Positions 10,188 through 55,818 of a DNA stretch of 64,000 bases are shown piece after piece (the first letter of the stretch is position 1; each line of letters begins with the position of its first letter). The stretch covers positions 4,936-68,935 of the forward strand of contig CAIQLG010000287.1 in NCBI GenBank assembly GCA_903872565.1, read 5' to 3'. A program made the position numbers and the translations under genes. The notes beneath the pieces are model-generated. The model did no database searches. It saw only the letters and a list, made by a program, of their open reading frames with translations, and was not told the DNA's origin. The stretch comes from an uncultured Lentisphaerota bacterium. Lineage in GTDB: Bacteria; Verrucomicrobiota; Lentisphaeria; Victivallales; GWF2-50-93.

Positions 10188-10652
10188 TTACTTACCTTCC
10201 CAAGTATGCAAACAATCAAAACAATGCCATTTCTTTTCTTTCCATCGCCAAGGCATAAATGTAACGACAAGTTGCATTAATACATTTCTGTAACTAACAG
10301 AATCATATATTATACTGACAGACGGGCATTTAGGGAATTCATCTTTAGTTTTCACAATATCATCATACATTTTATCATCCTCAGCTGCCGAATACTTAAG
10401 ATTAAAAACACGTCCCCGGATTTCCATAGCAAGTTCAATATCATCAGGATGGATGTAGATAGCAGTCCCAGCACCTTGTCCAAAGGTTCCTCCATATGCC
10501 GCTATTAAAGGTGAGACATTCTTCAATTCTTCAGAATTCTCAGAAAAATTAAACCGTACTCCTCCTTCAATAAAATTGTCTAAAAGAAGTTTTGCATCAG
10601 AGTAACTGTAAGTTCCGAAATCACTGAATTTTTTATCTTTCTGTTTAGACAT
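10188..10652 (-). CDS. Hypothetical protein with a C-terminal Cys pair region (CP...CFDC)
   Basis: 154-aa ORF in the same orientation as its neighbours. No confident family. Confidence 0.45.
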   Translation of the reverse strand: MSKQKDKKFSDFGTYSYSDAKLLLDNFIEGGVRFNFSENSEELKNVSPLIAAYGGTFGQGAGTAIYIHPDDIELAMEIRGRVFNLKYSAAEDDKMYDDIVKTKDEFPKCPSVSIIYDSVSYRNVLMQLVVTFMPWRWKEKKWHCFDCLHTWEGK

Positions 10653-10676
10653 GGTTTCTTATTCTCCAAATAACTT

Positions 10677-12065: not shown

Positions 12066-12291
12066 TTATTTACTTTGCCCAAGAGTAATGAAAATATCCG
12101 AATCGAAAAAAGTTGCTTTTAATGCTATTATCCACTTAATAAGTAATACATTGTTTATTTGTAAAATCAAAATTATTTACATTTTTGCCTCGGCATCAGG
12201 CACAATCAGATTCTTTTTTTTAAATTTTAAATTTGTTTTATTTTTTATAGGCAATATATTACCCATCCGAGAAATCAAAATTATTTCTTGT

Positions 12292-12366
12292 TCCGGCGTA
12301 GCTCAGTGGTAGAGTAGGTGGCTGTTAACCACTTGGTCGTAGGTTCGAATCCTACCGCCGGAGCCA
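12292..12366 (+). tRNA. tRNA-Asn (anticodon GTT), CCA encoded
   Basis: Acceptor TCCGGCG/CGCCGGA, D-arm GCTCAGTGGTAGAGT, anticodon loop CTGTTAA, T-arm GTAGGTTCGAATCCTAC, then GCCA. Confidence 0.9.
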
Positions 12367-12375
12367 TTTTTATTA

Positions 12376-12663
12376 ATGACCTATTATCTTTATATTCTAG
12401 AAAATCCAGATGGTCGCACATATGTCGGGCAGAGCAACGATCTTGATCGCAGGCTGATTCAACACAACAATCCCGAATATAGTGGAACACTCTACACGAA
12501 GCGCATCAAAGGACCTTGGAGACTAATTTATTCGGAAGAACATGCGAGCCGGTCGGACTCCATGGCGCGTGAAAAATATTTCAAGACCGGCAAGGGCCGA
12601 GCAATGATTGCTGAAATACAAAACAAGATTTGCGCCGGGAGTTCCAATTTAGGTGGCTGTTAA
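12376..12663 (+). CDS. Small GIY-YIG nuclease-superfamily protein
   Basis: YYLYILENPDGRTYVGQSNDLDRRLIQHN contains the GIY...YVG motif plus conserved R and H/N. 95 aa. The stop codon lies in the anticodon-loop sequence of the partial tRNA copy. Confidence 0.85.
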   Translation: MTYYLYILENPDGRTYVGQSNDLDRRLIQHNNPEYSGTLYTKRIKGPWRLIYSEEHASRSDSMAREKYFKTGKGRAMIAEIQNKICAGSSNLGGC

Positions 12664-12700
12664 TTCGCCTTGGCGAATTCGAATCCTACCGCCGGAGCCA
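12650..12700 (+). pseudogene. Partial duplicate of tRNA-Asn (anticodon arm to 3-prime end)
   Basis: AGGTGGCTGTTAA and TTCGAATCCTACCGCCGGAGCCATTTT are identical to 12315-12328 and 12344-12370. The middle is replaced by the palindrome AATTCGCC-TT-GGCGAATT. Confidence 0.75.
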
Positions 12701-12956
12701 TTTTGTCTGACACGAATTCCCACGAATTTTAATCGCTGAATATCCCCGGGCAAAGAATTTCCGTTTCTCCAAAATATTCATTGCCACTGTAAAAGATGAC
12801 GGCCAGGAATGACCGTCCTACTAAATTGCATAAAATCTTATTCCTCTCTAAGAGTAAATTCGTAAATCGATACATAACCACCAATTCATTAAAATTTAGT
12901 TGTAACGACCTTAATTTAGTCTATATTATGGTCATGATATAAGGGGAAATAATATT

Positions 12957-13250
12957 ATGAAACTGCACGATAAGGTAAAATCAATCAGCTATGTGAAGTC
13001 TCACGCCTCTGAAATACTGAACAAGATAAGCGATACCCATTCCACCTATGTGATAACCCAGAATGGTGAAGCAAAGGCGGTGATACAGGACATAGAAGAA
13101 TATGACAAGCTTCAGGAATCGCTTGCCATGCTTAAACTGATAGCCCAGGGTGCCAATGATATTGAACATGGCAGAATCAGACCGCTCAAAGAGTCATTCT
13201 CAAGTATTCGCAGGAAAATATCCGACAGGAAGTCCGCATGGAAAAAATGA
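12957..13250 (+). CDS. Phd/YefM-family antitoxin
   Basis: SYVKSHASEILNKISDTHSTYVITQNGEAKAVIQDIEEYDKL is a typical Phd/YefM fold sequence. ATGA overlap with the next ORF. Confidence 0.8.
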   Translation: MKLHDKVKSISYVKSHASEILNKISDTHSTYVITQNGEAKAVIQDIEEYDKLQESLAMLKLIAQGANDIEHGRIRPLKESFSSIRRKISDRKSAWKK

Positions 13251-13579
13251 GATATGAGATATTTGTCTCCGAAGAGGCAGAGAAGGATATTATAGATATT
13301 TGGTCGCACATAGCCTTGAACGATTGTCTCGAAAACGCTGACTACGTTCTCAATGGCATTGAAAAAGTAATTTCATCTCTCGAGACGATGCCACGGAGAG
13401 GGCATCTTCCGCCGGAACTTGAGAGGATATCAGTCTTCAACTACCTCGAAGTCCATTACAAGCCATACCGCATCATCTACCAGATTTGCGGTACTTCTAT
13501 TAATATTTACTGCGTAATGGACGGCAGAAGGGATGTCCAGAGTGTGTTGTGCAGGAGACTTCTGAAAATAGAATATTAA
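13247..13579 (+). CDS. ParE/RelE-family toxin
   Basis: About 110 aa. The EAEKDI...IW..I N-terminus and the YRIIY...I.I..V.DGRRD C-terminus are typical of ParE. I prefer the start at the ATGA overlap at 13247; the track start is 13238. Confidence 0.75.
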   Translation: MRYEIFVSEEAEKDIIDIWSHIALNDCLENADYVLNGIEKVISSLETMPRRGHLPPELERISVFNYLEVHYKPYRIIYQICGTSINIYCVMDGRRDVQSVLCRRLLKIEY

Positions 13580-13799
13580 ATATGCCAATATTTAGCTTAA
13601 ATCCAAAATAATATGCCATTATTTCCGTTTTAAATGCTATAATTATTAATTTCTACATCATAAATATCTGTAATTCAACTACTTCACTCAACCCGGGGTG
13701 ATATGTGGGCATTTGGAATTAACGCATTTTATGCTATAGCCTATTTTTTCTTTAAACTCTTTCCATAAAGTTTATAACTAAAACAAACCAAATCAGAGT

Positions 13800-13828
13800 T
13801 TGACATTCTATTGAATAGAATGTATTTT
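13800..13828 (+). promoter_or_regulatory. Sigma70-like promoter with a 19-bp palindrome in the spacer
   Basis: TTGACA (13800-13805), N17, TATTTT (13823-13828). CATTCTATT-G-AATAGAATG at 13804-22 is a perfect 9-bp dyad. The site is 45 nt upstream of the methyltransferase ATG. Confidence 0.45.
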
Positions 13829-13872
13829 TAAACAAAATTAGAAACGTACAAGAAATAATTCAAACAAAAGCC

Positions 13873-15084
13873 ATGAAGAAACTTCATAACAGCAATAAAA
13901 TCAAGGCAATATCTAATTGTTTGTTTGACAATTCTGATGGGAAAGTTGGGTCATTATTGTGGTTGCAACGGACAAAAAAACCTTTGGCAATCAATTCAAA
14001 TGAAAAAGTAAGCATTGTAGACCTTTTTTGCGGGTGCGGCGGCTTTTCACTGGGCGTTGTAGAGGCTGCAGTTGCAAGAAACTTATCCCCAGAAATAAAG
14101 CTTGCCATAGATTCAGATTCGGAGGCACTCAAGGTTTACGCTAAAAATTTTAAAGATTATGGTACAAACTTCATTGAAGATGATATTTCCAATCAATTTC
14201 CTGGCAAACTTGGTGCTGCTATGCATCATGTTGAAAAAAGACATTCGAAGAATCTTGGAAATATTGACTTTTTGATTGCAGGCCCACCGTGTCAGGGCCA
14301 CTCAGACTTGAATAATAGGACCAGGAGAAATGACCCTAGAAACAAACTTTATCTCAAGGTTGTTAGGGCAATTGAAGTGTTGAATCCTAAAATTGCCATA
14401 ATAGAGAATGTCGCTTCTGTTAAGCATGACAAATCAGAAGTGGTTCGAAAAAGCATTGAAAAATTAAAAGCATTGAATTACTCAATTGAGGAGATGAACA
14501 TAAATGCATTGGAATACAGCGTTGCTCAAAACAGGAAAAGACATCTTCTAATAGCCCACAAAGTAAAATTGCCATTCACAATAAATGCTTTCATTGAAGG
14601 CCTTGATTGGGAACCTTTAGCCTTAAAGGACGTAATTAAAGATATCATAGAAAAGCCAGAACAGTCTTCAGAAATGTTTGAAAAACCATCAAAAACAAAT
14701 GCTGAAAATATAGATAGAATATCCTATCTATTCAAGAACAAGCTATTCAATTTGCCAAATGATAAAAGGCCTCCTTGCCATCAAGCAAATCAGCATTCAT
14801 ACTTATCCATGTACGGTCGTTTAAAGTGGAACTTGCCTTCCCAAACAATTACTACAGGATTTGGGTCTATTGGTCAAGGTAGATATATTCATCCTTCAAA
14901 AAAAAGGGTAATCACCCCACATGAAGCAGCTAGAATTCAAGGCTTCCCTGATTATTTCAATTTTTCAATTGTCAAAAAGAGAATTACCTTGCAAACTATT
15001 ATTGGAAATGCAGTTCCCCCTCCTATCGGTGCTGTCTTTTCCTCATTCTTAATGGATTTTATTGGAAAGGAACATCATGTTTAA
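13873..15084 (+). CDS. DNA (cytosine-5)-methyltransferase
   Basis: Motif I DLFCGCGGFSLG, IV GPPCQGHS, VI ENV, VIII QNRKR, X GNAVPPP. Confidence 0.9.
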   Translation: MKKLHNSNKIKAISNCLFDNSDGKVGSLLWLQRTKKPLAINSNEKVSIVDLFCGCGGFSLGVVEAAVARNLSPEIKLAIDSDSEALKVYAKNFKDYGTNFIEDDISNQFPGKLGAAMHHVEKRHSKNLGNIDFLIAGPPCQGHSDLNNRTRRNDPRNKLYLKVVRAIEVLNPKIAIIENVASVKHDKSEVVRKSIEKLKALNYSIEEMNINALEYSVAQNRKRHLLIAHKVKLPFTINAFIEGLDWEPLALKDVIKDIIEKPEQSSEMFEKPSKTNAENIDRISYLFKNKLFNLPNDKRPPCHQANQHSYLSMYGRLKWNLPSQTITTGFGSIGQGRYIHPSKKRVITPHEAARIQGFPDYFNFSIVKKRITLQTIIGNAVPPPIGAVFSSFLMDFIGKEHHV

Positions 15085-16117
15085 TCAAGAGAGAATTAAT
15101 GCGGCTGAAAAGCAAATTGAAGAAGAAAAAAAAATCGTTGATTATGACACCAAAGAGTATCCAGTTGAAGTCATTGTGGCCAAATATGTCACAAAAATGG
15201 AAGATGATGATAATGAATTATTTATTCCTGATTATCAGAGGGATTTTGTTTGGTCAGAAAAGCGACAATCTAAATTTATTGAGTCTGTAATATTAGGCTT
15301 GCCAATTCCATACGTTTTTGTAGCAGATAACGAAGGACGAATTGAAGTTGTTGATGGTTCTCAAAGGATCCGAACGCTAGTCGCTTTTGTTCGTGGCCAG
15401 CTTATATTGACTGACTTAAAGAAGCTTACAGAGCTAAACGATTTCAAATTTAGTGATCTTTCAGAAAAAGAGCGTCGCAGGTTTAACCGCAAAACAATTA
15501 GGATGATAGAACTTACTGAAAACGCAAACGAGGATGTTAGGCGAGACATTTTTGAGAGAATAAATACAGGTAGCGATGAGCTAAGCGAAATGGAAAAAAG
15601 AAAGGGTATTTTAGCTGGAAGCTTCTATAAGGTTGTCTCTGATTGTTCTAACAATCCAATGTTCAAGAAACTATGCCCAATAAGTGATAAAAAAATCAAA
15701 CGTGAAGAAGGACCTGAAATGGTCCTGCGATTCTTTGCGTATGCCTATAATTATGAGTCGTTTGAGCATTCAGTTGTTGACTTTTTAACTGATTTTATGA
15801 CAGAAATGAACGAGAAAACTGATTTTGCTCCATATATCAATGATTTTGAAACCATGCTTACATTTGCAGAAAGATTGCTGAAAAATGGCTTTCGACGAAC
15901 AGCAAGTGCCAGCACGACGCCACGAGTTCGGTTTGAGACGCTTTCAGTAGGAATTCATTTGGCTTTAAAGCAGAATCCAGAACTTACCTTGCCAAATGAT
16001 TTGACTTGGTTAGATTCAGATGAGATGGCAGAATTTACACGTTCAGATGCTAGCAATTCAAAACCAAAAGTGAAGGCAAGAATTGAATTTGTAAGAGATA
16101 AATTGTTGGGAGGATAA
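15077..16117 (+). CDS. DUF262 (ParB-like / GmrSD N-terminal type) domain protein without a recognisable DUF1524 nuclease half
   Basis: IPDYQRDFVW and VDGSQRIRT signatures. The ATG at 15077 overlaps the methyltransferase stop by 8 nt. Confidence 0.75.
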   Translation: MFNQERINAAEKQIEEEKKIVDYDTKEYPVEVIVAKYVTKMEDDDNELFIPDYQRDFVWSEKRQSKFIESVILGLPIPYVFVADNEGRIEVVDGSQRIRTLVAFVRGQLILTDLKKLTELNDFKFSDLSEKERRRFNRKTIRMIELTENANEDVRRDIFERINTGSDELSEMEKRKGILAGSFYKVVSDCSNNPMFKKLCPISDKKIKREEGPEMVLRFFAYAYNYESFEHSVVDFLTDFMTEMNEKTDFAPYINDFETMLTFAERLLKNGFRRTASASTTPRVRFETLSVGIHLALKQNPELTLPNDLTWLDSDEMAEFTRSDASNSKPKVKARIEFVRDKLLGG

Positions 16118-16120
16118 AAG

Positions 16121-16786
16121 ATGAAAAACGTTTTGGCAGATTATGAGAATAGGAAGAATGAGATTGGCGTATATATTGAGTTCATGAAACTAATTGAAAA
16201 TGATTCTGAGCTTGAGCCAATTATAAAAATTAAATGTGCTGATTCAAATAAGCTCAAGAAGATATTGAAGGCAAACACCTATTTGCTAATGTACAATATG
16301 GTGGAATCATCAATAAGAAATGCAATTCAAGCAATATACGACCATTTTAAAAGGAATATGGTTGAATTTGACTCACTGCATAATGAAATTCAAGTGCTAA
16401 TATTAAAAAATGTTAAGAAGACAAACCCCTCTGACTTTCAAAAAAAGCTAAATGCAATTGCTAAGGATATTGTTCTTGAATCTTTTAACCCTGACAATCT
16501 TACCTCTGGGAATATTGATGCCAGAAAAATTAAGGAGATTTCTAAAGAATATGGCTTTTCATGTAAGACGGATTACAAAACATGCAAAGATGGTGCGAAG
16601 TTAATAGAGATTAAGAATAAAAGGAACGATTTGGCTCATGGAATCATATCCTTTGCTGATTGCGGAAAAGACATAGTTACTTCAGATGTTAACACTGCTT
16701 TCGATGAATGCTCTTCATATTTATCTGCTATTTTAACAAATGTTGAAAAATATCTGAATAATAATGAATATTTAAAAACTGCTTGA
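16121..16786 (+). CDS. Putative HEPN-domain protein (R-x4-H)
   Basis: NKRNDLAHG near the C terminus and helical-looking sequence. Starts 3 nt after the DUF262 stop. Confidence 0.55.
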   Translation: MKNVLADYENRKNEIGVYIEFMKLIENDSELEPIIKIKCADSNKLKKILKANTYLLMYNMVESSIRNAIQAIYDHFKRNMVEFDSLHNEIQVLILKNVKKTNPSDFQKKLNAIAKDIVLESFNPDNLTSGNIDARKIKEISKEYGFSCKTDYKTCKDGAKLIEIKNKRNDLAHGIISFADCGKDIVTSDVNTAFDECSSYLSAILTNVEKYLNNNEYLKTA

Positions 16787-17058
16787 ACACCGTTATATGT
16801 GCAACTCAGTGGTGATCTAACTAACGGAATCACAGTTAGTTATGGCTCAGGAATGGGCTGATTAAACACCTTAAAACGGAATAAAGGCCATAATTTTTTG
16901 TGCCTATAAATTATTGCATGGATGGGTACGTTCTTTAATAGTTCTTTTTAAAGTTAAAAAAACGTTTTTGTTAAAAAATCTTGATTTTTTAGATTTTCAA
17001 TTGTATTTTTCCACACAGAAGACAAAGAGGAATTTCAAATATTAACTGTTCGGCTAAA

Positions 17059-46050: not shown

Positions 46051-46392
46051 TTAACTGGTGTTTTTCCTAATTTTGTAATGGCTATGGCAATATTTGTTTC
46101 CAGGGAGATGGGCTTCTAAGAGACCTTTAAAAAGTTTTCCGTGATTTGGAATATGAAGATGAAGTAGATCATGGACAATCACATAATCTCTTAACTCAGT
46201 ATCACCACCAAGAAGAGCTTCATTAAAGGTGACACATCCACTACTTGAACAGGATGCCCATTTGCTACGCATCTTTTGGATTCGTAATCGGGCTGGCTTC
46301 ACCTTGATTTTCCGTGCCCATTCCATAACCTGTTCTTTGAAATAAATCCTATCCATATAATTCTCTTGAAACTTATTTTCAACCATAATCAT
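46051..46392 (-). CDS. Short DUF45/YgjP-like (WLM/M48-type) metal-dependent hydrolase
   Basis: RSKWASCSSSGCVTFN ... YVIVHDLLHLHIPNHGKLF (HExxH-like HDLLH plus NH). Lies 15 nt downstream of hsdR. Confidence 0.7.
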   Translation of the reverse strand: MIMVENKFQENYMDRIYFKEQVMEWARKIKVKPARLRIQKMRSKWASCSSSGCVTFNEALLGGDTELRDYVIVHDLLHLHIPNHGKLFKGLLEAHLPGNKYCHSHYKIRKNTS

Positions 46393-46407
46393 AATTCATT
46401 TTTTTTA

Positions 46408-49365
46408 TTATCTCAGCAGTCTTTCGACAATCTGAATCATCTTTTCCTTCCCTACCAGAGGGAAGAGAAACTTGTAAAGCTCTGCCTTGAGTTGACGCAG
46501 TTCTTCCGGATTGTCCTTGGAATTCGGAAATCTCTCAACCATACTTTTTACTATGGCTGCATTTTTGGCGGGTTCTTCCATTTTTTCTGATTTCAGCTTC
46601 CAGAAAATTCCAAAAGTATCAGAGTCGAGACCAGACAACTCCCGCTCCTTCCGCGCGGCCAGCATTTCCTTCACAATATCCTCTATTCTCTTCAATGCGC
46701 TCTCCGTGGAAATCTGCCTGTCGTCGAATGCCTCTATTATAGCCTCCGCACGGTCGCCGATTTCGTGGAGATACGGCGCATTGTCTCCTTCATCGGTCAC
46801 TTTTTTCCTTATGCCGATCACAAGGTTGATTATCTTTCCTTTGTCCGATTTTCCGGAAATTCTTATCGCATCAAGAGTCTTATCGTCAATTACTACTGCA
46901 GGAAGAGCATTTTCCAGACCGAACACCGAGATATTTTCGCGGATAAGATGTTCCGTCTTTCCAGCTACATCGCCATACAGGACGGTTTTTCTGCTGAACG
47001 CATTTCCTATTATCTGGAACATTGCGGAAAGTTTTGCGAAATCATCCATATGATCCCTTAGATCGGGAGATGGAGACAATATGTCGTATATCGTTTCCAA
47101 TTGTTTGTAAAGCCTGAAGAAATCCTCTCTCTCGCTCTTGTCAGAGAACAATTCGACAATTTTTTCCACTGTCTTGTCATCCAGACTACCATCACAGAGT
47201 ACCAGATATTTTTTCGCATCCTTTGCCATCAGGTCGTGAAATCTTGCAAGAAGGATATCTATCCCCTCGATCGCTCCGCCAACCACATCAGAGTCGAATG
47301 CCAGTGCTTTCTCAAGCTTCTCGAAGATTCCTACAAAATCCACTACGAGGCCGCATGGCTTCCGTTTTTTCTCATTTATTTCATAAGGTCTGTTAACCCT
47401 TGCAATCGCCTGAAGCAGAACGTGATCGCGCATCGGCTTATCAAGATACATGCAGTAGAGAATCGGAGCGTCGAAACCAGTCAGAAGCTTGTCAGTCACA
47501 ATGAATATCTTTGGCAAAGTGTCCGGTTTCAAAAACTGCTTGCGGACCATCTTTTCTGCTTCCGCGCCAACCTGGTGTTTATAAACAAAGGGAAATCTCT
47601 CACCGTCGTGCTGGGCCGAACTGTATATCGGCATAGAATATTCCGGAGGCAAAAGCTTGTCCAGTTCCTCCTTGTAGAGGGCACAGGCTTCGCGATCCAC
47701 ACCGACTAGAAAGGCCTTGTATCCCATCGGCTCGACATTTTCCCGGTAGTGTTTTGCAACAAACTTTGCGACCTTCGCAATTCGGTCCTTAGATTTAAGA
47801 AAATTCTTCAATTTCAGTGCATGGTCCAGAATTTTGTTTAACACATCAATATCGCAAATGCCTTCTGCCTCCGCAAGCGACAGGAATTCCTTCTCGAGTT
47901 GTTCCCGCGGCACTCTGATCTCGTTCGGTGCGAGAGCATACTTCAGAGGTAGAGTAGTTCCGTCGTCTATTGATTCGCTTATTGAATATTTGTCGAGATA
48001 ACCCTTGTCGTCCTCTCTTCCAAAAATCTTGAATGTCCCCTTCCCATATGCGGTCTTGTCTATCGGCGTTCCGGTGAAGCCTATCATCGTGGCACTTGGA
48101 AGAGCGGCAACCAGATAGTTACCGAGATCGCCCCCTATACTCCTGTGCGCCTCGTCTATAAGAACGAAGATATTGTCCCGCTTGTTAACATCTTTTGAAA
48201 TTCCATCGAACTTGTGTATCATCGAGACAACAAGGCCTCTGAAATCCGATTCTAGAAGGCTTCTGAGTTTTTTCTTGCTGTTTGCTGACTCGATCTTAAT
48301 GTCGTGCGCCTGCATCTCGCCAAGAAGCCTTCCGACCCATCCGGAAAGCTGTCCCTCGAGTTCATTTCTGTCAATCATAAGTATCACTGTTGGTTTGCCG
48401 AACAGATCCTTCTCACGGAGAATTAGGCGTGCCGCAGTAATCATAGTGAAAGTTTTACCCGACCCCTGAGTGTGCCATATCAGACCTGTCTTCCTTGCCT
48501 CGTCGGAACAACGTTCGAGAATCTTGTCCACAGCTCTCGTCTGATGCTGTCGCAGGACAGTCTTACGTAGTTCATCATCCTTGTAATAAAACAAAATCCA
48601 TTCCCGCAGCATCATCAGGAAACGTCCACGGTCAAAGAAACTTTTCACCTTCGACTCGAAAGAATCGAAGTTCTGGGAGATGCCGTTCTCGCCTCTCCCC
48701 GTCCCCCTCTGGAGAGGGGCTCCAACCCGTTCATCATTTGCCGATTTCCAACTGAAAACATTCTTGCAGTCGAGGTTCCAGGTCACTCCATACATGAAAT
48801 CAATCAGATGTGTTATGTTGAAAACCTGTGCGCTTGTAACCATTTCCGGTGTTTCCCTGTGATATTCGCGAATCTGGACTAGCGCCTTCTCGATTCCGTC
48901 CGGTTTTTTTGCATTTTTTGACTCTACTATGGCAACTGGAATTCCATTGATCAGAAAAATAATATCAGAGCGGTTGGTCTCTCGTCCATTGGTGAACTGC
49001 CACTCTTCGGTGACTTGAAAAATATTGTTTTTGATTTTTTCATAGTCAATGAGAGCCACATTGCGTTCACGTTTTTCCTTGTGGTCATAAATGCTTTTTT
49101 CGCCGCGAAGCCAGGAAAGGATCGAGGCATTGCCCTCGATGGTATTCCGCTCTGACTCTATCCTTCGTATCACATCATTTACATTTTCGCCAGTGATCAG
49201 GCCGGGGTTGAATTTCTTAAGCTTGTCAGCAAGAATGTCCGAAAAAAGCATCCCGGACTCTCCACCGCGGAGCGACAACGCTTCCGAGGTGGAAATATAT
49301 TCCCACCCCGCATCAACCGCATATTTTATCAGCGGTTTCTGAACTGTGTTTTTTTCCGTAAACAT
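46408..49365 (-). CDS. hsdR: Type I restriction enzyme R subunit
   Basis: WHTQGSGKTFTMI (motif I), LIDEAHRS (DEAH), C-terminal helicase and assembly regions. I prefer the ATG at 49365 with a GAGGA RBS; the track start is TTG at 49386. Confidence 0.9.
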   Translation of the reverse strand: MFTEKNTVQKPLIKYAVDAGWEYISTSEALSLRGGESGMLFSDILADKLKKFNPGLITGENVNDVIRRIESERNTIEGNASILSWLRGEKSIYDHKEKRERNVALIDYEKIKNNIFQVTEEWQFTNGRETNRSDIIFLINGIPVAIVESKNAKKPDGIEKALVQIREYHRETPEMVTSAQVFNITHLIDFMYGVTWNLDCKNVFSWKSANDERVGAPLQRGTGRGENGISQNFDSFESKVKSFFDRGRFLMMLREWILFYYKDDELRKTVLRQHQTRAVDKILERCSDEARKTGLIWHTQGSGKTFTMITAARLILREKDLFGKPTVILMIDRNELEGQLSGWVGRLLGEMQAHDIKIESANSKKKLRSLLESDFRGLVVSMIHKFDGISKDVNKRDNIFVLIDEAHRSIGGDLGNYLVAALPSATMIGFTGTPIDKTAYGKGTFKIFGREDDKGYLDKYSISESIDDGTTLPLKYALAPNEIRVPREQLEKEFLSLAEAEGICDIDVLNKILDHALKLKNFLKSKDRIAKVAKFVAKHYRENVEPMGYKAFLVGVDREACALYKEELDKLLPPEYSMPIYSSAQHDGERFPFVYKHQVGAEAEKMVRKQFLKPDTLPKIFIVTDKLLTGFDAPILYCMYLDKPMRDHVLLQAIARVNRPYEINEKKRKPCGLVVDFVGIFEKLEKALAFDSDVVGGAIEGIDILLARFHDLMAKDAKKYLVLCDGSLDDKTVEKIVELFSDKSEREDFFRLYKQLETIYDILSPSPDLRDHMDDFAKLSAMFQIIGNAFSRKTVLYGDVAGKTEHLIRENISVFGLENALPAVVIDDKTLDAIRISGKSDKGKIINLVIGIRKKVTDEGDNAPYLHEIGDRAEAIIEAFDDRQISTESALKRIEDIVKEMLAARKERELSGLDSDTFGIFWKLKSEKMEEPAKNAAIVKSMVERFPNSKDNPEELRQLKAELYKFLFPLVGKEKMIQIVERLLR

Positions 49366-49392
49366 TTTTTCCTCGCAAAGACGCAAAGCTTT

Positions 49393-49452
49393 TTATATTT
49401 TGACACTTTTAACATCAATATCCAATTCCCCCACCCGGATTTTACCTCTCAT
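49393..49452 (-). pseudogene. hsdS: Relic of a second hsdS 3-prime end (19 codons plus stop)
   Basis: Translates as MRGKIRVGELDIDVKSVKI-stop, against LMTGELRVGELDIDVESVKI-stop at the end of the intact hsdS. Over the core of about 50 nt the DNA differs from 51151-51200 at only one position. Confidence 0.65.
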
Positions 49453-49493
49453 AGGACATTGCCGTATCGCCGAGGGTTTCAGTGTTGCTTCTC

Positions 49494-51044
49494 TCATATC
49501 AACGGCTTTTCCATGTCGGTCTTCCATTCCTGTAGTTCTTTCAGAGATAGAACCACATCGTAATCTTCGCAATCTTCGGCGTGATTCAATGCATCCTGTA
49601 AAAAAACCATGGCGCAGGACAGGTCGAGAGGCATGCCATATTTTTCAGCGTCACAGCCATGCATTTCAGCAATAACAACATAGTTCTGCGCATCTTTTGG
49701 ATTCTCGGTGATCGCCTCTTCTAAAAAGTCCAACGCCTGTTTGTTACGCCCTAAAACGGCCATGGCGCGAGCCAGATCGGCTTTAAGGTTTGACCTCATC
49801 CGCTTGTCCATTTCTGGAAAGCGGTCTAGGAGTTCCTTGAAATACGTCACTGAGAATTCAGCTGTCCTCATATTTCTTCCCGATAAATCGACCAGCAGCC
49901 TTTCAAAATCCTGCATCCAGTTGACAAGAAAATCATGTCCTTCAAAAACTCCGGCATCTTCGGGATTCTTTAAAGTCTGCGGCAGCATGTCCCGCAATTC
50001 ATTCCAACATCTCTTCCAGCACTCAAAAGTCTGCAATGACATATGCTTATCTATGTAAATATACCCAGCCCTCATCCAATCATTGGCCGAGATGTTTTTA
50101 TCCCGGACAGGCTTGTCCGACACTGAAACTTGGGGGGGAGCTTCCGAAGGGCCATTCAGACAGCATTTCTTGTATTTTTTTCCGCTACCACAGGGGCAGG
50201 GATCGTTTCTGCCTATCTTTGCACGCGGTGCAGTTGAGAGCCGTTGCTGCTCCTTGAGGACATCTAGCAAACCCAAGCATTCTTCTTCATTTTCAAATTC
50301 CGGATAGGGTTTCTTTCCCCATTGACAAACGAAGAAGTTCATTGACTTTTCGATGCTTTCAAAGACACGGTGACTTTTTCTCGTCTGTTCCAGCACCTCA
50401 TCAACAGATTTTTCGAAGTCACTTAGAATATAGTCCAATCTTTCGAACCCCGGATCGGCCAATCCCCTCTCGTAACATTTCTTAATCAGGGGCAATGCAA
50501 CATCAGCGTGAATGCTGGAAGCAACCACGATCGCCTTATCCCATATAAACGAGGCTCTTCTCTCCAATCCTTTTTCCAAGAGAAAAACACAGTATTCCGC
50601 AAGTGAATCCCGGGAGAGTTCACCATCCAGCATCATATGCAGCAAGCTGTCCATTGCCGAGGCCCGGGCATATTCATCGGGTACGGAATCTTCAATCAGT
50701 GCCTTTGTCTCATCCACCCGGCCCGCGCAGGTTCTCGCAAGCATGTCCGACATGGTCTCAGTCAGAATATCTCCAAGAACATGGCGTTGAACGACTTTGG
50801 GCAGACGACAAAGTTTTAAATAAAGCGGGAAAGCGTCCCGAGATCGCATCTCGGCACAAAGATGGATGGCGTAAAGAAACAGAGCATCACGATCCTCCGT
50901 CGTGGGAGATTGCAGTTTCAAGTCAATATCCTTCAACAGAAGCGGATCCGCCTCATTCCAGTTTGCACGTATGTAATCCAGCGCTTCTCGCGGCACCTTC
51001 GACGTGAACGGCCTCAGCGCATCAATCGCTTCCGTAATATTCAT
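49494..51044 (-). CDS. SEC-C metal-binding-motif protein (DUF1186-like N-terminal region, TPR-like C-terminal region)
   Basis: GRNDPCPCGSGKKYKKCC. AAGGAG RBS. 516 aa. Confidence 0.75.
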   Translation of the reverse strand: MNITEAIDALRPFTSKVPREALDYIRANWNEADPLLLKDIDLKLQSPTTEDRDALFLYAIHLCAEMRSRDAFPLYLKLCRLPKVVQRHVLGDILTETMSDMLARTCAGRVDETKALIEDSVPDEYARASAMDSLLHMMLDGELSRDSLAEYCVFLLEKGLERRASFIWDKAIVVASSIHADVALPLIKKCYERGLADPGFERLDYILSDFEKSVDEVLEQTRKSHRVFESIEKSMNFFVCQWGKKPYPEFENEEECLGLLDVLKEQQRLSTAPRAKIGRNDPCPCGSGKKYKKCCLNGPSEAPPQVSVSDKPVRDKNISANDWMRAGYIYIDKHMSLQTFECWKRCWNELRDMLPQTLKNPEDAGVFEGHDFLVNWMQDFERLLVDLSGRNMRTAEFSVTYFKELLDRFPEMDKRMRSNLKADLARAMAVLGRNKQALDFLEEAITENPKDAQNYVVIAEMHGCDAEKYGMPLDLSCAMVFLQDALNHAEDCEDYDVVLSLKELQEWKTDMEKPLI

Positions 51045-51079
51045 AGCTCAAGCTCCTTAACTTATCCTCTTTTTTTTAT

Positions 51080-51146
51080 CTTTGCGATCTTGGCGGCTTG
51101 GCGAGAGGTAAATAATTTTTTCTCGCAAAGGCGCAGAGACGCAAAG
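51080..51146. repeat. CTTTGCG-heptad palindromic spacer element (E4)
   Basis: CTTTGCGATCTTGGCGGCTTGGCGAGAGG ... CTCGCAAAGGCGCAGAGACGCAAAG. The reverse complement aligns with the element at 53929-53970. Confidence 0.65.
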
Positions 51147-51150
51147 TTTT

Positions 51151-52344
51151 TTATATTTTGACACTTTCAACATCAATATCCAATTCCCCCACCCGGAGTT
51201 CTCCTGTCATCAGCTTGTTCAATGTCGTATTGAACAAATCCTGCAACGCGGATTTTTTGGAATCATTAAACTCAAGCTTATTGGAAGTTATATCCATCAT
51301 TTTCACAATTTTATCCTGCTCCATTCGTTCCGGGCACGGAATAGACAATGATTTTAGTTGTGTGGCTGGAAGATGTGCTATTGTAGAGCTTGCACCAGCA
51401 TTACCATAAAGTTTCTGCATTTCAATCGAAAACATTAGCCAATATACTAAGAACTCATTTGAAATAATTTTTGTCTTTGGGCGAAGACGATGGAGCGCTT
51501 TTTGGTAATAGCAGTCTCGTATTTGCCCTTGCCAAATTGCTGCACGGCCAGGCTCTCCTCCCTCACAAATTAATAGATCACCGGGAACAAGGCTAAACTT
51601 TTCCATTTCTTTTGGTGTAAAATCCATTTTTAATATGTCTTCGACATCAATCTTACCCCATTGAACATTTTTATTGCGGAGATAAAGCTTTGGGTTATTA
51701 CCGATATGAGCCTTCTGTGATAACATCTTTCCAAGTTGCACATTAAATACCTCACCTATTTTCACCACTTCCCAGCTTTCCGGGATTTCGCCGATAGGCG
51801 TATATTTTGTTTTTTCCCCATGGAGTCCACGGGAAAAAATAAAATTCATTGTGGACTTTTTCAGATCTCGGAGGGACTGGATAATCTTTTCCTGGATTAA
51901 AATTGCATTCTGCAATTTTAATAGTACCGCCGCAATCTTCTCCTGCTCGGGAAAAGGTGGGAGTGAGATATCCTTTTCTTTCAATAGTTGATAATGGCGA
52001 GAATATCCTTTACTCGGTATATCCAAGAGTAAAAGGTAATAATAAAAATATCGTGGATTAATGTCCGATCTTGGCTTAATTAATTTGGTACCATCCGCAC
52101 CAAGAGCAAATGGAAAGTCAACATATTTGAATATCCTCGTGTGATCACCAAAAATTATATAAGGTAAATTTTCAGAGATCACTGTTGATACATCGTCTGT
52201 CCAGCCTGTTATATCACTTTGTCCCTGATCAACAATTGGATATTTCCCAGCAGTAAGATAGGTAGCGGCCTTAACCTGTCTGCTCCGATCTATACGAACT
52301 GGGTCAATACATTCAGAAAAATTATTAATCGTCCACTTATTCAT
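51151..52344 (-). CDS. hsdS: Type I restriction-modification specificity subunit
   Basis: Two target-recognition halves separated by the conserved LPPFPEQEKIAAVL...L spacer helix, with a matching C-terminal helix. 397 aa. Confidence 0.85.
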   Translation of the reverse strand: MNKWTINNFSECIDPVRIDRSRQVKAATYLTAGKYPIVDQGQSDITGWTDDVSTVISENLPYIIFGDHTRIFKYVDFPFALGADGTKLIKPRSDINPRYFYYYLLLLDIPSKGYSRHYQLLKEKDISLPPFPEQEKIAAVLLKLQNAILIQEKIIQSLRDLKKSTMNFIFSRGLHGEKTKYTPIGEIPESWEVVKIGEVFNVQLGKMLSQKAHIGNNPKLYLRNKNVQWGKIDVEDILKMDFTPKEMEKFSLVPGDLLICEGGEPGRAAIWQGQIRDCYYQKALHRLRPKTKIISNEFLVYWLMFSIEMQKLYGNAGASSTIAHLPATQLKSLSIPCPERMEQDKIVKMMDITSNKLEFNDSKKSALQDLFNTTLNKLMTGELRVGELDIDVESVKI

Positions 52345-52376
52345 TATTTAACTCTTTCTAACCCAAAAAAATTTTA

Positions 52377-52444
52377 CTTTGCGTTTCATTGCGCCCTTTG
52401 CGGTGAAGATTTTTTTACCGCGGAGAACGCCAAGGAACGCAGAG
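52377..52444. repeat. CTTTGCG-heptad palindromic spacer element (E1), direct repeat of 52850-52917
   Basis: CTTTGCGTTTCATTGCGCCCTTTGCGGTGAAGATTTTTTTACCGCGGAGAACGCCAAGGAACGCAGAG. Internal GCGGT...ACCGC hairpin. Abuts the GxxExxY stop codon. Confidence 0.75.
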
Positions 52445-52822
52445 TTACAAACCGTTCACCATTCTTTTGACCCCATCCTTTAGTAGCATGACATTGAAAT
52501 TCATCAGCAATCCGAGTTTAAGTCCGCTCAGTTTCAGGTATGACAGAAGCTGTGCTTCGTGGATTGGTGCGATTTTGTCTACAGCCTTGAGTTCGATTAC
52601 GACTTTGTTTTCAACAAGTAGGTCTATTCGGTATCCGAGGTCGATTTTGATATCGTCGTAGATGACCGGGAGAGCTTTTTGTTTTTCCACGAAGAGTTTT
52701 TTCTTTTTCAACTCATATTCGAGACATCCCTCATATGCGGATTCAAGAAGTCCCGGACCGAGAGCCTTGTGAACTTTCAATGACGCATCAATAATTTCTT
52801 TGCTGATTTCATTTTCCGTCAT
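52445..52822 (-). CDS. GxxExxY-family protein (PD-(D/E)XK-like small protein)
   Basis: GPGLLESAYEGCLEYEL contains G-x-x-E-x-x-Y. 125 aa. LVENKVVIELKAV is the typical core. Confidence 0.8.
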   Translation of the reverse strand: MTENEISKEIIDASLKVHKALGPGLLESAYEGCLEYELKKKKLFVEKQKALPVIYDDIKIDLGYRIDLLVENKVVIELKAVDKIAPIHEAQLLSYLKLSGLKLGLLMNFNVMLLKDGVKRMVNGL

Positions 52823-52849
52823 AATTTTTCTTCCTTATTTTATGTTTTT

Positions 52850-52917
52850 CTTTGCGTTTCATTGCGCCCTTTGCGGTGAAGATTTTTTTACCGCAGAGAA
52901 CGCTAAGATACGCAATG
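52850..52917. repeat. CTTTGCG-heptad palindromic spacer element (E2)
   Basis: Nearly identical to 52377-52444 over about 60 nt, in the same orientation. Lies 28 nt upstream of the GxxExxY start. Confidence 0.75.
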
Positions 52918-53103
52918 TTTATTTAATTTTGCTGGAAACAGCCCATTTACAGGCTGTAATTTCGGATATTTCTCCCTTGTGGAAATATATCTGTAAGTTC
53001 TTCGCTCATAATATATTGTAATTTTAGGTACAGTGTCCCCAAAATTTGCCGATATAAAGGATAATCTCCCTTCGATAGCTCTGTTACTTTCTTCTTCATT
53101 TAT

Positions 53104-53757
53104 CTACCATTCTTTCGGTTTATGGACAAATTTTCCGCTTGGCAATAGAACCTTGTCAGGGAACTGGTGTTTCGCATATGATTCGGCGGAAAAAGCAAAA
53201 GAATCAGGACTGATTTTCGCAAGCTCCTTGTTTTTACGGCCAAAGGGAAATGCAAATAACAATTTCTTCTCTGGATTCATTCGCCCAAATGTTGAAATGA
53301 CTGGTCGCAGATCTGTATCGCCGGTCACAATAACCGCAGTGTCAAACGATCCTTTGTTAGCTTCTTCCAGAACAGCACAAGCCAATGCAACATCGGTTTC
53401 CTTTTCCTCATGAGCAATGATCTTCTTTCCAGTCTCGGCATCGTATACGTCTTTTTTCTTAAAATGGCTTTCGTTGACTTTTACGCCAGTAGCTGTCAAT
53501 GCGCGGGTGTAAGCCTTATGTCTCGAAATTTTGTTGGGATTCTTATATGCGAGATGATAAGCGTAAGCCGTGAAATATGAAACCTGGCTGAGTACGGCCT
53601 CGTGGCCAATCAGGTGCAAATGTTTTTTGCATAGATTATGAATATCCAACCATTTGAGCTGTTTTCCGGGCAGGATTTTTTGAGCGTCACAAATAGAGTG
53701 GTACAAGTTGAACCCATCAACAAAGAAACAAGTGCGGATTGGGGTGGATGTAATCAT
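53104..53757 (-). CDS. NYN-domain (PIN-like, LabA-type) predicted ribonuclease
   Basis: CFFVDGFNLYHS, EEKETDVALA, AVIVTGDTDLRPVI acidic residues in the canonical NYN order. Confidence 0.8.
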   Translation of the reverse strand: MITSTPIRTCFFVDGFNLYHSICDAQKILPGKQLKWLDIHNLCKKHLHLIGHEAVLSQVSYFTAYAYHLAYKNPNKISRHKAYTRALTATGVKVNESHFKKKDVYDAETGKKIIAHEEKETDVALACAVLEEANKGSFDTAVIVTGDTDLRPVISTFGRMNPEKKLLFAFPFGRKNKELAKISPDSFAFSAESYAKHQFPDKVLLPSGKFVHKPKEW

Positions 53758-53928
53758 AAGACAATCTCCCCGGCAACATACGGCAGGGGAAAAAAACCCA
53801 CGGATCGTAACCCGTGGGGGGCCACGCGACCTCGGAACCAGGTCCGAGGATCATCGTGGGGATGATTCTGCATAAATATAGAATGAGTTTCTACTGTTTC
53901 AAGAAAATATTTCATGAAAAAATTATTC

Positions 53929-53970
53929 CTTTGCGTTCTTTGCGGCTTTGCAAGAAAAATAATTTTCTCC
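53929..53970. repeat. CTTTGCG-heptad spacer element (E3)
   Basis: CTTTGCGTTCTTTGCGGCTTTGCAAGAAAAATAATTTTCTCC, between hsdM and the NYN ORF. Confidence 0.65.
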
Positions 53971-54003
53971 CTGTGCATTTCGTGTCTTTTTTGATTAGAG
54001 CCA

Positions 54004-55818
54004 TTAAAACCCCATCTGTTTGAAAATCTTCTTCATATCCTTGTCAATTACAGTGGCTTTGCATTCCAGTTCCTCGAGTTCATTCAATATTTCCGGTATT
54101 GGACGATATTCGACTTTCTCACTTGTGTCCACATAACGGGATGGAGAGAGGTTATAGTCGTTTTCAGTGACTTCCTTATTGCCTATTACCTTGACAAATC
54201 TCTCTATGTCCTGGCCTTTTATGAACGCCTGGGCTATTTTCTTGATGTTCTCCTCGGGAATGTAATTTTTCGGACTTCCCTTCTTGAACTCTGTGCTTGC
54301 ATTAACCAGTACAATTTTGCCTTTTCTGGCCGGAACCTTATTTTTATTCAGTAGAATGATGATTCCCGCCGCTGTAGTATTGTAGAAGAGATTGTCCGGG
54401 AGAAGAATGACTCCCTCGACAAGATCATTTTCCACAAACCATTTTCTTATGGTGTTCTCCTTGTCCTCGTTACGGCTTCCACTGCCACGCGTCACCGCCC
54501 CGGTATCGAGAACCACGGCGGCACGTCCATTAGGCTTAAGCGAGGCGATGGTATGCTGAAGCCAGGCCCAGTCGGCCTTGCCGGAAGTGATTCCTCCGTG
54601 TGACTCGAACCTGTCGAAATGGTCATTTTCATAGACTGACGTTTCGAACGGCTGGTTCCACATCGGATTTGCCACGACAATATCGAACTGCCTCAGGCGC
54701 GATTCAGAATCCCTGAATTTCGGGTTCGTCATGGAATTTCCACGAACTATCTCCCCTTCCATATCATGGATAACCATATTCATCCGTGCGATGGCATAGC
54801 TTGAACCCGTAAGTTCCTGTCCATAGAGTTTTAGAGGCCTGTTCACTTTGATTTCACGTTCCTGGAGTGCAAGTTCGCATTTGATCAGGAGACCGGCTGA
54901 GCCACAGGCGTAGTCATAGACTTCTTCTCCCTGTGAAGGTCGTGCCATAAAGGCCATGAGCCAACCGACTTCTGTGGGCGTGAAAAACTCCCCGGCGCTC
55001 TGCCCCTGTCCTTCGGCGAATTTTCTGAGAAGATATTCGTAGCAGCGTCCGAGAAAATCAGGTTCCACATTGTAAAGTCCCAGTCGGTATTTCGGATCAG
55101 ACAACTTTTCGATGATTCCTGAAAGAGCCGCATCGCTGATTTCCCTCTCTCCGTTCCTGACCTCGTTGAAATCAATGATGTCCAAGACCCCGCTGAGATC
55201 TTTGCGCGTGTCTCCGGCGTTCATCTTCACTACCGCCCTCATCGCAAGAGTAAGATGTTCTCCGAGCGTTTTCGGTTTTTTGTCTTTTGTCCAGTCAAAC
55301 TTATCTCTACCGCTCACCACCGCCCATCGTGCCTCGGGAGGGATATAGAAACGAACCAGGCTTTTGTCGGCCTCGATTATTGAAATAGCCGTATCCCTGT
55401 CTCCATAGGTTTCGGACAAGCGTTCTATTTCATCGTCGAAGACATCGGAAAGTCTCTTGAGAAATATTATCGGCAATATATAGTCCTTGAACTTGGGGGC
55501 GTCCTTCTCTCCGCGGATAGAACAGGCGGCGCTCCACAATATCTGTTCCATGGATTTTGTGCTGAGAATATCACTTCTTTGTCCCTTGACCTTTTTCTTC
55601 GGAAGTTCCTCTTCAAAGAGTTCAGCCTGGTCGGACTCTGTCTCTTTGATCAGTTCCATGATAGCACGTTTCGCCTTTCCCTGAGGAAAACTTTTCCCAT
55701 TTTCCCAGCGATTCAAAGTGGAAAAGGCAACTCCAAGCTTGGCGGCAAGTTCTTCCTGTGTCAGATTCAGAGTTTCTCTTAGTCTGATTACTATTGATGA
55801 TATGTCCCTATCTTCCAT
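54004..55818 (-). CDS. hsdM: Type I restriction-modification methyltransferase subunit with a fused N-terminal XRE-type HTH
   Basis: LNLTQEELAAKLGVAFSTLNRWENGKSFP (HTH). DYACGSAGLL (motif I). VANPMWN (NPPW-type motif IV). Confidence 0.9.
   Translation of the reverse strand: MEDRDISSIVIRLRETLNLTQEELAAKLGVAFSTLNRWENGKSFPQGKAKRAIMELIKETESDQAELFEEELPKKKVKGQRSDILSTKSMEQILWSAACSIRGEKDAPKFKDYILPIIFLKRLSDVFDDEIERLSETYGDRDTAISIIEADKSLVRFYIPPEARWAVVSGRDKFDWTKDKKPKTLGEHLTLAMRAVVKMNAGDTRKDLSGVLDIIDFNEVRNGEREISDAALSGIIEKLSDPKYRLGLYNVEPDFLGRCYEYLLRKFAEGQGQSAGEFFTPTEVGWLMAFMARPSQGEEVYDYACGSAGLLIKCELALQEREIKVNRPLKLYGQELTGSSYAIARMNMVIHDMEGEIVRGNSMTNPKFRDSESRLRQFDIVVANPMWNQPFETSVYENDHFDRFESHGGITSGKADWAWLQHTIASLKPNGRAAVVLDTGAVTRGSGSRNEDKENTIRKWFVENDLVEGVILLPDNLFYNTTAAGIIILLNKNKVPARKGKIVLVNASTEFKKGSPKNYIPEENIKKIAQAFIKGQDIERFVKVIGNKEVTENDYNLSPSRYVDTSEKVEYRPIPEILNELEELECKATVIDKDMKKIFKQMGF

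Follow-up and report, generated by a model that had tools for sequence, protein, structure and literature searches.

A conserved structured RNA accompanies a NYN ribonuclease gene carried, with two unrelated cargo genes, in a type I restriction-modification operon of an uncultured Lentisphaerota bacterium

Do the three genes that interrupt a type I restriction-modification (R-M) operon in an uncultured Lentisphaerota bacterium work together with the operon, or are they cargo that uses it as a place to land? The question arises from a stretch of 64,000 nucleotides (nt) of contig CAIQLG010000287.1 (GenBank assembly GCA_903872565.1), here called the window, in which seven open reading frames (ORFs), all co-directional on the minus strand, encode in order an HsdM with an additional helix-turn-helix (HTH) domain, a NYN protein, a GxxExxY protein, HsdS, a DUF1186–SEC-C–TPR protein (hereafter SEC-C/TPR), HsdR and a short YgjP-like protein. 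A first-pass annotation had delineated these ORFs as a type I operon with embedded passengers; all seven, with their coordinates, were present in the ORF list, and profile searches upheld the domain labels of hsdM, hsdS, hsdR and the three passengers. The locus is a chromosomal type I R-M operon with an HTH-bearing HsdM, interrupted by three unrelated cargo genes. The further proposal of that annotation, that the passengers are coupled to the Hsd complex in the manner of PrrC, we found unsupported: NYN appears to be autonomous, and the SEC-C/TPR gene was hsd-embedded in none of six lineages and its product carries no recognizable catalytic domain. We found that a conserved structured RNA, absent from Rfam, accompanies the NYN gene. 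This RNA, in the hsdM-NYN gap, is the main new lead from the locus and had been overlooked, as had direct repeats that bracket the GxxExxY and SEC-C/TPR genes.

'Guilt-by-embedding' has been used to collect defence genes that lie inside Hma, BREX, DISARM and type I R-M systems (Payne et al. 2024, bioRxiv 10.1101/2024.01.29.577857; statements on this preprint refer to the available parts of its text and supplements). HEC-09, a MARF1-like NYN protein with conserved aspartates, was proposed there as a defence candidate because it is embedded in defence systems. The NYN protein of the window (217 amino acids (aa); 53104..53757, minus strand; Pfam PF01936, 1.2e-9) matched the PADLOC HEC-09 profile over its full length (4.8e-43; residues 8-217 on profile positions 3-202 of 203). 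The gene is embedded in a defence operon in both cases; HEC-09 was defined from Hma-embedded genes, whereas the window copy stands in a type I operon. The supplements, as far as available, contained no mention of DUF1186, SEC-C, PDDEXK, GxxExxY, PDC-S12 or PDC-S02. Thus, the view of the first-pass annotation that this gene content was undescribed is fair for the exact combination, but the phenomenon, NYN included, had already been published.

The active-site residues of the NYN protein proved to be invariant among 21 homologues (D14, N17, E118, D122, D147, and D149). An AlphaFold 2 (AF2) model of the protein (predicted local distance difference test score (pLDDT) 93.8) found its top solved-structure match in 2qip (E 4.6e-7), which we take to be a LabA-type NYN protein.

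The conserved element was found about 30-110 nt 5' of the NYN start by comparison with a locus (L006; L numbers are our locus labels) from an uncultured Lentisphaera, which carries the closest NYN relative (75% identity). In the window it occupies 53786..53871 (minus strand), with a covariance-model match of 70.7 bits and a minimum free energy of -37.4 kcal/mol (z -3.65), and the minimum free energy fold of this copy is identical to the consensus fold. The order of parts is a -10-like box, a single-stranded AUCAUCCCC, a variable hairpin P1, a GCCCCC linker, a hairpin P2, and a U-run. The 5' single strand, which contains AUCAUCC, is near-invariant; P1 is closed by CCAG/CUGG-type pairs and varies in length; P2 has 9 base pairs, its apex GGGUUACGAUCC with a UACG tetraloop is almost invariant, and together with the U-run it forms an intrinsic terminator. 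A promoter-like site, TTGAAA-16-TATATT, lies at 53875..53902 (minus strand; 10 of 12 positions in a consensus scan), and P2 was flagged independently as a terminator-like site (53818-53797, minus strand). In the other NYN loci that we inspected, the -10-like box lies about 5-8 nt 5' of AUCAUCC. The RNA measures about 70–85 nt across loci and is a single P1-P2 unit in every aligned locus.

A single-sequence nhmmer search recovered the element at the equivalent position in about 48 of 78 homologous loci. Thirty-one sequences were aligned with MAFFT, and RNAalifold predicted both P1 and P2; 97.9% of the alignment cells were paired, nine of the 14 pairs showed double compensatory changes, and the covariation reached 0.597 against 0.228 in shuffled alignments (0 of 500 shuffles attained the observed value), while slid controls collapsed. 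A covariance model was then used to search 1.48 Mb comprising 80 loci, which are the species-level NYN homologues from a genome scan; 31 of the searched sequences had served for training and the remaining ones are independent. The model matched all 80 loci (31.6-86.8 bits), in 79 of them directly upstream of NYN and in sense, and gave three further matches in the whole 1.48 Mb. On viral contigs the RNA was present 5' of 25 of 50 divergent NYN copies (26-45% identity), with no further match in 437 kb. No family of Rfam 15 reached its gathering threshold for this leader, the best being anti-hemB (19.1 bits against 49.5). Our literature search, whose coverage was incomplete, yielded nothing specific on an NYN-associated RNA motif, and no RNA associated with HEC-09 is described in the available parts of Payne et al. 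2024 (10.1101/2024.01.29.577857).

Could the element instead be a small protein-coding gene, such as one for a protein antitoxin? The candidate is a 74-aa ORF (53978-53754, minus strand) whose end overlaps the start of NYN in ATGA; gene callers annotated it in several assemblies, L006 has a similar ORF likewise ending in an ATGA overlap, and stop/start overlaps are typical of toxin-antitoxin pairs (Matelska et al. 2017, PMC5499597, in the part of that article available). Across 79 loci, however, the open stretch varied from 22 to 101 codons and lay in frame 0, 1 or 2 relative to the NYN start; 21 of the 79 had no stop-free frame across the element at all, and the length differences in P1 were not multiples of three. 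The extent of pairing and the compensatory double substitutions described above would also be unexpected in a coding sequence. Since neither the frame nor the open length is conserved, we rejected the small-ORF reading, which we regard as hardly credible.

What the RNA does may be indicated by the most compact loci. In L041, L029, L076, and L045 the U-run adjoins the ATG, and so the G-rich 3' arm of P2 (GGAGG/GGGGG) is the sole Shine-Dalgarno candidate there; P2 would then block both transcription and translation. From this arrangement, the leader RNA probably acts as a cis off-switch of NYN. It is possibly, in addition, a trans-acting RNA antitoxin. According to this second proposal, which refines and does not exclude the explanation that we favour below, an abundant RNA of about 80 nt ending at P2 would bind the NYN ribonuclease and inhibit it in trans; once infection had shut off host transcription, the RNA would run down and the nuclease would be set free. 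The antitoxins of type III systems are tandem repeats cleaved by a ToxN-fold toxin. The NYN module shares with type III systems (ToxIN, CptIN, TenpIN) the order of promoter, structured non-coding RNA, intrinsic terminator, and endoribonuclease gene, and the near-invariance of the single-stranded AUCAUCCCC and of the P2 apex suggests recognition by a partner. It differs from them in having a single two-hairpin unit without tandem repeats for ToxN to process and a nuclease of NYN/PIN-like rather than ToxN/AbiQ fold. Moreover, the overlap of P2 with the Shine-Dalgarno candidate in compact loci would by itself explain the conservation as that of a cis-acting off-switch. RNA copies without an adjoining NYN gene (L044, L233, and L242) fit a trans-acting RNA, as does L022, where the RNA is not a 5' untranslated region because it lies downstream of and convergent to NYN; L022 is, on the other side, one contig of a metagenome-assembled genome and may be rearranged or misassembled. 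On balance we hold the antitoxin proposal to be possible but on the unlikely side. A layout similar to that of the NYN module is found in AbiF, an RNA-regulated abortive-infection system with an upstream RNA before its gene (PMC12373285), but the abiF Rfam model does not match the NYN leader.

Several single copies of the RNA merit a record of their own. The L022 copy (4153-4228, minus strand) is intact, scores 70 bits, and has its own promoter-like boxes; its placement could reflect trans action, a rearrangement, or an assembly artefact. At L233 (760-1560, minus strand) an RNA of 60 bits has TTGACA-17-TATAGT upstream and no U-run, and the 7.9-kb stretch yielded no NYN gene; it lies about 150 nt ahead of repeats of about 37 nt (GTCGCACTCTCC...GCTGCAAC) with spacers, resembling a CRISPR array, and a nearby ORF fragment looks TnpB-type by appearance. 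The motif also occurs, at 35-45 bits and with no detectable adjoining NYN, at L044 (14370-14444, minus strand), L242 (1411-1479, minus strand), and L235 (379-442, minus strand); in L242 the next ORFs encode small phage-like proteins. In L006, between hsdM and the NYN leader (9300-9339, plus strand), the abiF RNA model gave 29.7 bits against a threshold of 37 (E 0.12), and this match is probably merely the hsdM terminator.

Does the NYN module belong to the R-M operon? The anticodon nuclease PrrC of the EcoprrI type I R-M locus combines an ABC-ATPase-like part with a C-terminal anticodon-nuclease domain, and its regulation depends on binding to the Hsd complex. By analogy, the NYN protein, the SEC-C/TPR protein, or both could be kept latent through binding to Hsd, be freed once a phage anti-restriction protein has disabled the complex, and then cleave cellular RNA as a second line of defence. 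As in EcoprrI, a ribonuclease gene lies in a type I hsd operon and the hsdS-hsdR slot is filled with cargo. The SEC-C/TPR gene does occupy this slot of prrC, as the first-pass annotation stated; NYN does not, as it lies between hsdM and hsdS. The NYN protein also differs from PrrC in its fold, in having its own RNA leader, and in occurring mostly away from hsd genes, and the slot-equivalent SEC-C/TPR protein lacks a nuclease domain. No PrrC-type domain was detected in either protein with Pfam, NCBIfam, and PADLOC, and thus neither passenger has the PrrC architecture.

The survey of gene neighbourhoods bears on the same point. An Hsd or N6-methyltransferase gene lay within 10 kb of NYN in about 10 of the 80 species loci (about 13%), as judged with hidden Markov models seeded from the Hsd proteins of the window, by which divergent R-M genes may be overlooked. 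This survey was in agreement with a Pfam scan that covered 96 neighbour proteins in 30 species: the top neighbour families were N6_Mtase, HSDR_N, Eco57I, SWI2_SNF2, and Schlafen/AlbA_2, with 3-4 members each among 147 families in total. The module is enriched near R-M genes, yet the majority of its copies are elsewhere, about 87% of the species-level homologues being without an Hsd or N6-methyltransferase gene within 10 kb. PrrC itself, by comparison, is found almost only within type I R-M loci (Payne et al. 2024, 10.1101/2024.01.29.577857). Independent promoters and terminators and a want of association with hsd genes, which the first-pass annotation had named as arguments against coupling, were largely found for NYN: a promoter-like site and a terminator-bearing leader accompany it, the leader in 80 of 80 loci, but the hsd association is enriched, although confined to a minority. 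Judging from these elements, NYN appears to be an autonomous module that brings its own promoter-like site, leader RNA, and terminator.

For coupling speak the conserved NYN catalytic residues, the stability of the arrangement in the population, and the fact that the nearest NYN relatives are always in HTH-hsdM operons. Furthermore, Matelska et al. 2017 (PMC5499597) reported PIN-superfamily nucleases that are apparently co-transcribed with type I R-M genes; these arrangements are not kept from one close species to another, and some of them have no protein antitoxin. The available part of that article describes neither the LabA-type NYN family of the window nor an RNA partner. Against the promoter-like site, leader, and terminator that travel with NYN, these points leave PrrC-style coupling to the Hsd complex as the less likely reading; we consider it improbable.

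The closest relatives are in Lentisphaerota, Victivallales, and Verrucomicrobiota. They share the skeleton HTH-hsdM, NYN, hsdS, a variable gene, hsdR, and short ygjP, or a permutation of it; the ygjP part was seen in L006, L008, and L011, and the L001 locus ends within hsdR. The rest of the cargo differs: L006 carries a 119-aa ORF and a DUF3800 gene; L008 a second NYN paralogue, an IS200-like fragment, and an ORF resembling a 23S rRNA intervening-sequence (IVS) protein; L001 a 1520-aa STAND-HEAT protein, PDC-M54A-like; and L011 an ABC ATPase (matching Ppl and PDC-M49A) and a Schlafen/AlbA_2 protein. Between hsdS and hsdR, the sister loci carry, among others, the DUF3800 gene, the STAND NTPase, or the IVS-protein-like ORF. 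This comparison indicates that NYN is a lineage-conserved companion, and that the remaining slots turn over. The NYN paralogues of L008 stand in tandem (8957-9637 and 9923-10681, plus strand), the first being divergent (HEC-09, 1.5e-12), and are followed by the ORF with the IS200-like Y1 transposase fragment, all within the hsd operon.

How could such slots turn over? The gaps between the genes of the window measure 246, 281, 100, 106, and 128 nt, and the ygjP start lies 15 nt past hsdR. The structured repeats noticed in these gaps at first pass are real: all five CGCAAAG-N(1-12)-CGCAAAG matches of the window fall in them, with none expected from shuffles. Full imperfect hairpins of 72-75 nt (-27.6 to -28.4 kcal/mol, z -5.3 to -6.6) are present in three gaps, all on the minus strand. 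Two of them, at 52845..52919 (upstream; -28.4 kcal/mol, z -5.75) and 52372..52446 (downstream; -28.0 kcal/mol, z -5.27), are copies of a direct repeat that brackets the GxxExxY gene (75 nt at 91%, or 70 nt at 93%). The third, between hsdS and the SEC-C/TPR gene (51075..51146; -27.6 kcal/mol, z -6.64), opens the inserted segment with its right arm. Just 3' of hsdM there is also a half hairpin of the right-arm type with CGCAAAG units (53928..53952, minus strand; pattern match 53929-53944), for which no complementary left arm was seen. Searched against Rfam 15, the hairpins gave chance matches to miRNA models alone, far under threshold.

The SEC-C/TPR gene is likewise bracketed by direct repeats (103 aligned nt, 83% identical; minus strand). 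Copy 1 (51108..51210) comprises the last 60 nt of hsdS including the stop, the left arm of the hairpin, and an hsdR start decayed to ATT ATT TAC (ATG to ATT); copy 2 (49358..49452) comprises what is left of the hsdS 3' end, followed by the left arm and the genuine start of hsdR. In L006 the DUF3800 cargo is flanked by a 226-nt repeat (89%) with the same architecture, and the right-hand insertion boundary is at nt +7/+8 of hsdR in both loci, the cargo being unrelated. In L033, a Bacteroidetes R-M locus, the NYN module lies between two 162-nt repeats (91%), each a CGCAGAG-type hairpin with a remnant of the 3' end of the upstream methyltransferase gene, and another small cargo ORF and another hairpin follow the module. 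We counted 27 clusters of the arm motif in 2.03 Mb, compared with 5 after shuffling, and found them concentrated at cargo borders. As repeats that consist of the 3' end of the upstream R-M gene plus a CGCAAAG-type hairpin contain pieces of neighbouring R-M genes, they point to homologous rather than site-specific recombination, and their form suggests that cassettes turn over in this way. As a separate observation on L033, an Acido-Lenti-1 RNA (RF01687; 38.6 against a gathering score of 37) was found at 4826-4870 (minus strand), about 350 nt 3' of NYN and between two hairpin elements.

Co-directional cargo ORFs with imperfect palindromes at their borders recall integron cassettes. Inspection by eye revealed no attC core sites (RYYYAAC/GTTRRRY) in the elements of the window or of L033, and no integrase gene is among the genes of the locus (no search was aimed at integrases in the rest of the window). 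We set the integron reading of the hairpins aside for want of core sites and because the repeats include R-M coding sequence. In L036, a GxxExxY gene lies between opposite (inverted) hairpin arms, an arrangement that resembles the ORF in the stem of ORF-bearing 23S rRNA IVSs.

The GxxExxY gene itself (125 aa; 52445..52822, minus strand) encodes a small protein of PD-(D/E)XK_3 nuclease fold (TIGR04256, 153.3 bits against a cut-off of 35, 3e-45; PDDEXK_3 PF13366, 149 bits against 22, 7.8e-44), and a D...ELK motif is visible in its translation; PADLOC matches were weak (PDC-S02, Cas4). The literature search, incomplete as noted, gave nothing specific on GxxExxY in R-M loci.

The third cargo gene, in the hsdS-hsdR slot (516 aa; 49494..51044, minus strand), encodes DUF1186 (3.2e-33), a SEC-C zinc knuckle (3.3e-10), and weakly matching TPRs. 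Its AF2 model (pLDDT 87.6) is all alpha-helical on both sides of the zinc knuckle, and Foldseek returned generic TPR proteins alone (E >= 2e-3, template-modelling score about 0.2). Neither the Pfam, NCBIfam, and PADLOC profiles nor the model searched with Foldseek gave a catalytic or nuclease domain, and the PADLOC matches (PDC-S12, E2) were confined to the SEC-C motif. This protein is no evident effector; it might act as a sensor or adaptor, or have nothing to do with defence. The 516-aa long form has widespread homologues, and a 93%-identical copy stands in the identical layout in related strains. Seven contig look-ups provided the contexts of six independent lineages: in none is the gene hsd-embedded; in one it is convergent to a type I locus; in two it lies in toxin-antitoxin or mobile islands (RhuM-Fic and HipA; ParE and PRiA4); in one it adjoins a DUF1016 nuclease gene; and in two the surroundings are of the housekeeping kind (NADH dehydrogenase, lipase, sugar dehydrogenase). 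A metagenome scan for DUF1186-SEC-C-TPR was left out of account, as almost all of its 80 loci were unrelated SEC-C proteins (generic CGSGKK[YF]K).

The housekeeping surroundings raise the alternative that the passengers have no role in defence and are selfish or neutral hitchhikers, small mobile genes together with an unrelated housekeeping-type scaffold protein, which gather where insertions between R-M genes are tolerated. GxxExxY genes between inverted or direct hairpin arms look like mobile units, equivalent slots of sister loci hold an IS200-like fragment and an IVS-protein-like ORF, and the HEC-09 representative assayed by Payne et al. 2024 (10.1101/2024.01.29.577857) did not protect against the coliphages used. 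Other equivalent slots, however, hold defence-like cargo (the STAND NTPase/PDC-M54A, the Ppl- and PDC-M49A-matching ABC ATPase, and Schlafen/AlbA_2), the families found most often beside the NYN module are those of R-M genes, and two of the DUF1186 contexts are toxin-antitoxin islands. There is also clear purifying selection on the NYN active-site residues and on the RNA. We take hitchhiking for a minority possibility.

The explanation that we favour, with some confidence, is that the R-M operon is a landing site for self-contained cargo cassettes and not one integrated seven-gene machine. The first cargo, the NYN/HEC-09 module, would have arrived with its promoter-like site and its structured RNA ending in an intrinsic terminator; its nuclease gene would be off by default, and would be switched on, or its product neutralised, by way of the leader RNA. 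The second would be the GxxExxY PD-(D/E)XK gene between its two hairpin-element copies of about 70-75 nt, and the third the DUF1186-SEC-C-TPR gene, apparently inserted at about nt +8 of hsdR between duplicates of about 100 nt of the hsdS-hsdR junction. Cargo may enter or be exchanged by homologous recombination at the repeated junction or hairpin sequences, through Campbell-type integration of a junction-bearing circle or a double crossover between related operons. The roles of the cargo genes in defence or conflict would then be independent of the Hsd proteins.

Several observations weigh against this explanation. The nearest NYN relatives (54-75% identity) lie without exception within HTH-hsdM operons, and thus a lineage-specific functional link between NYN and Hsd is conceivable. 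In many metagenome samples of the population the three passengers are stably inherited together, and neither an empty site nor an excised circle was seen, so that the only pointers to mobility are the repeats and the comparison of sister loci. The window and L006 are related, and the junction duplication that they share could go back to a single ancestral event, after which the cargo was replaced; L001 and L008 have cargo in the same slot and no room for a junction duplication. The want of a protective phenotype of the published HEC-09 representative counts here as well. Finally, a loose DNA pattern found three genuine copies of the RNA on viral contigs where NYN was not detectable in the fetched stretch, and the RNA is consequently not strictly bound to NYN. 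We withdrew the statement that the RNA is exclusive to NYN genes on account of these copies; a strict pattern hit NYN contigs only.

A bolder and rather unlikely reading is that NYN/HEC-09 is a two-part RNA-protein module, in which the RNA of about 80 nt, with its conserved 5' single strand and a tRNA-T-arm-like UACG hairpin doubling as terminator, would serve as antitoxin, decoy, or sensor of a LabA-type NYN ribonuclease, and that R-M operons swap such modules by means of a 'portable homology' in which an R-M gene's 3' end is joined to a CGCAAAG-type hairpin.

The R-M genes that surround the cargo have the composition of a type I system by their profiles: an HsdM methyltransferase, an HsdS with two target-recognition domains, and an HsdR with nuclease and superfamily 2 translocase. 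The hsdM gene (604 aa; 54004..55818, minus strand) encodes an N-terminal Xre-type HTH (HTH_3, 1.2e-10), HsdM_N (1.1e-21), and N6_Mtase (9.4e-90) in Pfam, and matched MTase_I of PADLOC (8.3e-152). Its score with TIGR00497 was 206, under the equivalog cut-off of 242.75, and therefore we assign it to a divergent subfamily that has an additional HTH domain. The fusion of HTH and HsdM is found again in L001, L006, L008, L011, L036, and L061, which are loci with NYN near hsd. The hsdS gene (397 aa; 51151..52344, minus strand) matched Methylase_S in two stretches (1.3e-27) and Specificity_I of PADLOC (1.1e-60). Two hsdS alleles (397 and 371 aa) were observed in one population with an identical NYN in both, and the 371-aa allele was linked to a 518-aa version of the SEC-C/TPR protein (93% identical); this linkage suggests a recombination tract across both genes. 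The hsdR gene (985 aa from ATG 49365; 46408..49365, minus strand) scored 471 bits with TIGR00348 against a cut-off of 284.55 (5.7e-141) and has the Pfam domains HSDR_N, SWI2_SNF2, ResIII, and a T1R_D3-like domain. Its longest ORF opens at TTG 49386; the ATG start given in the first-pass annotation is that of the gene callers and fits the N-terminus in sister loci.

The last gene (113 aa; 46051..46392, minus strand) encodes a short YgjP-like metallopeptidase core (PF01863, 1.8e-24; profile positions 113-201 of 207). As the short form is kept in L006, L008, and L011, it is not a truncation. The window protein has HDLLH where three sister loci and a full-length relative have HELxH, a change of the catalytic Glu to Asp in the zinc-peptidase motif. 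Downstream of the locus are GNAT and RecO genes. A 50-aa ORF (52947-53099, minus strand), called by gene finders in some assemblies, opens 4 nt past the NYN stop, and L006 carries its 119-aa ORF, unrelated in appearance, at the equivalent position. Elsewhere in the window, positions 12001-17000 have a G+C content of 0.31-0.39, against about 0.45 in the rest.

Embedded R-M cargo is an accepted route to new immune genes, and the locus adds an example to it, not a new principle. The flanking repeats, together with a shared insertion point for different cargo, suggest a simple route of homologous recombination by which defence cassettes could pass between R-M operons. The HEC-09 NYN protein, a candidate without a phenotype so far, is accompanied by a deeply conserved RNA in all 80 species-level NYN loci. 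Functional work on HEC-09 should retain or manipulate this RNA, and the covariance model may be used to annotate the module. The RNA provides a testable idea of how a stand-alone PIN-like nuclease that lacks a protein antitoxin may be silenced; if the two-part RNA-protein reading were true, the module would represent a class of toxin or abortive-infection modules under RNA control that is new and separate from type III.

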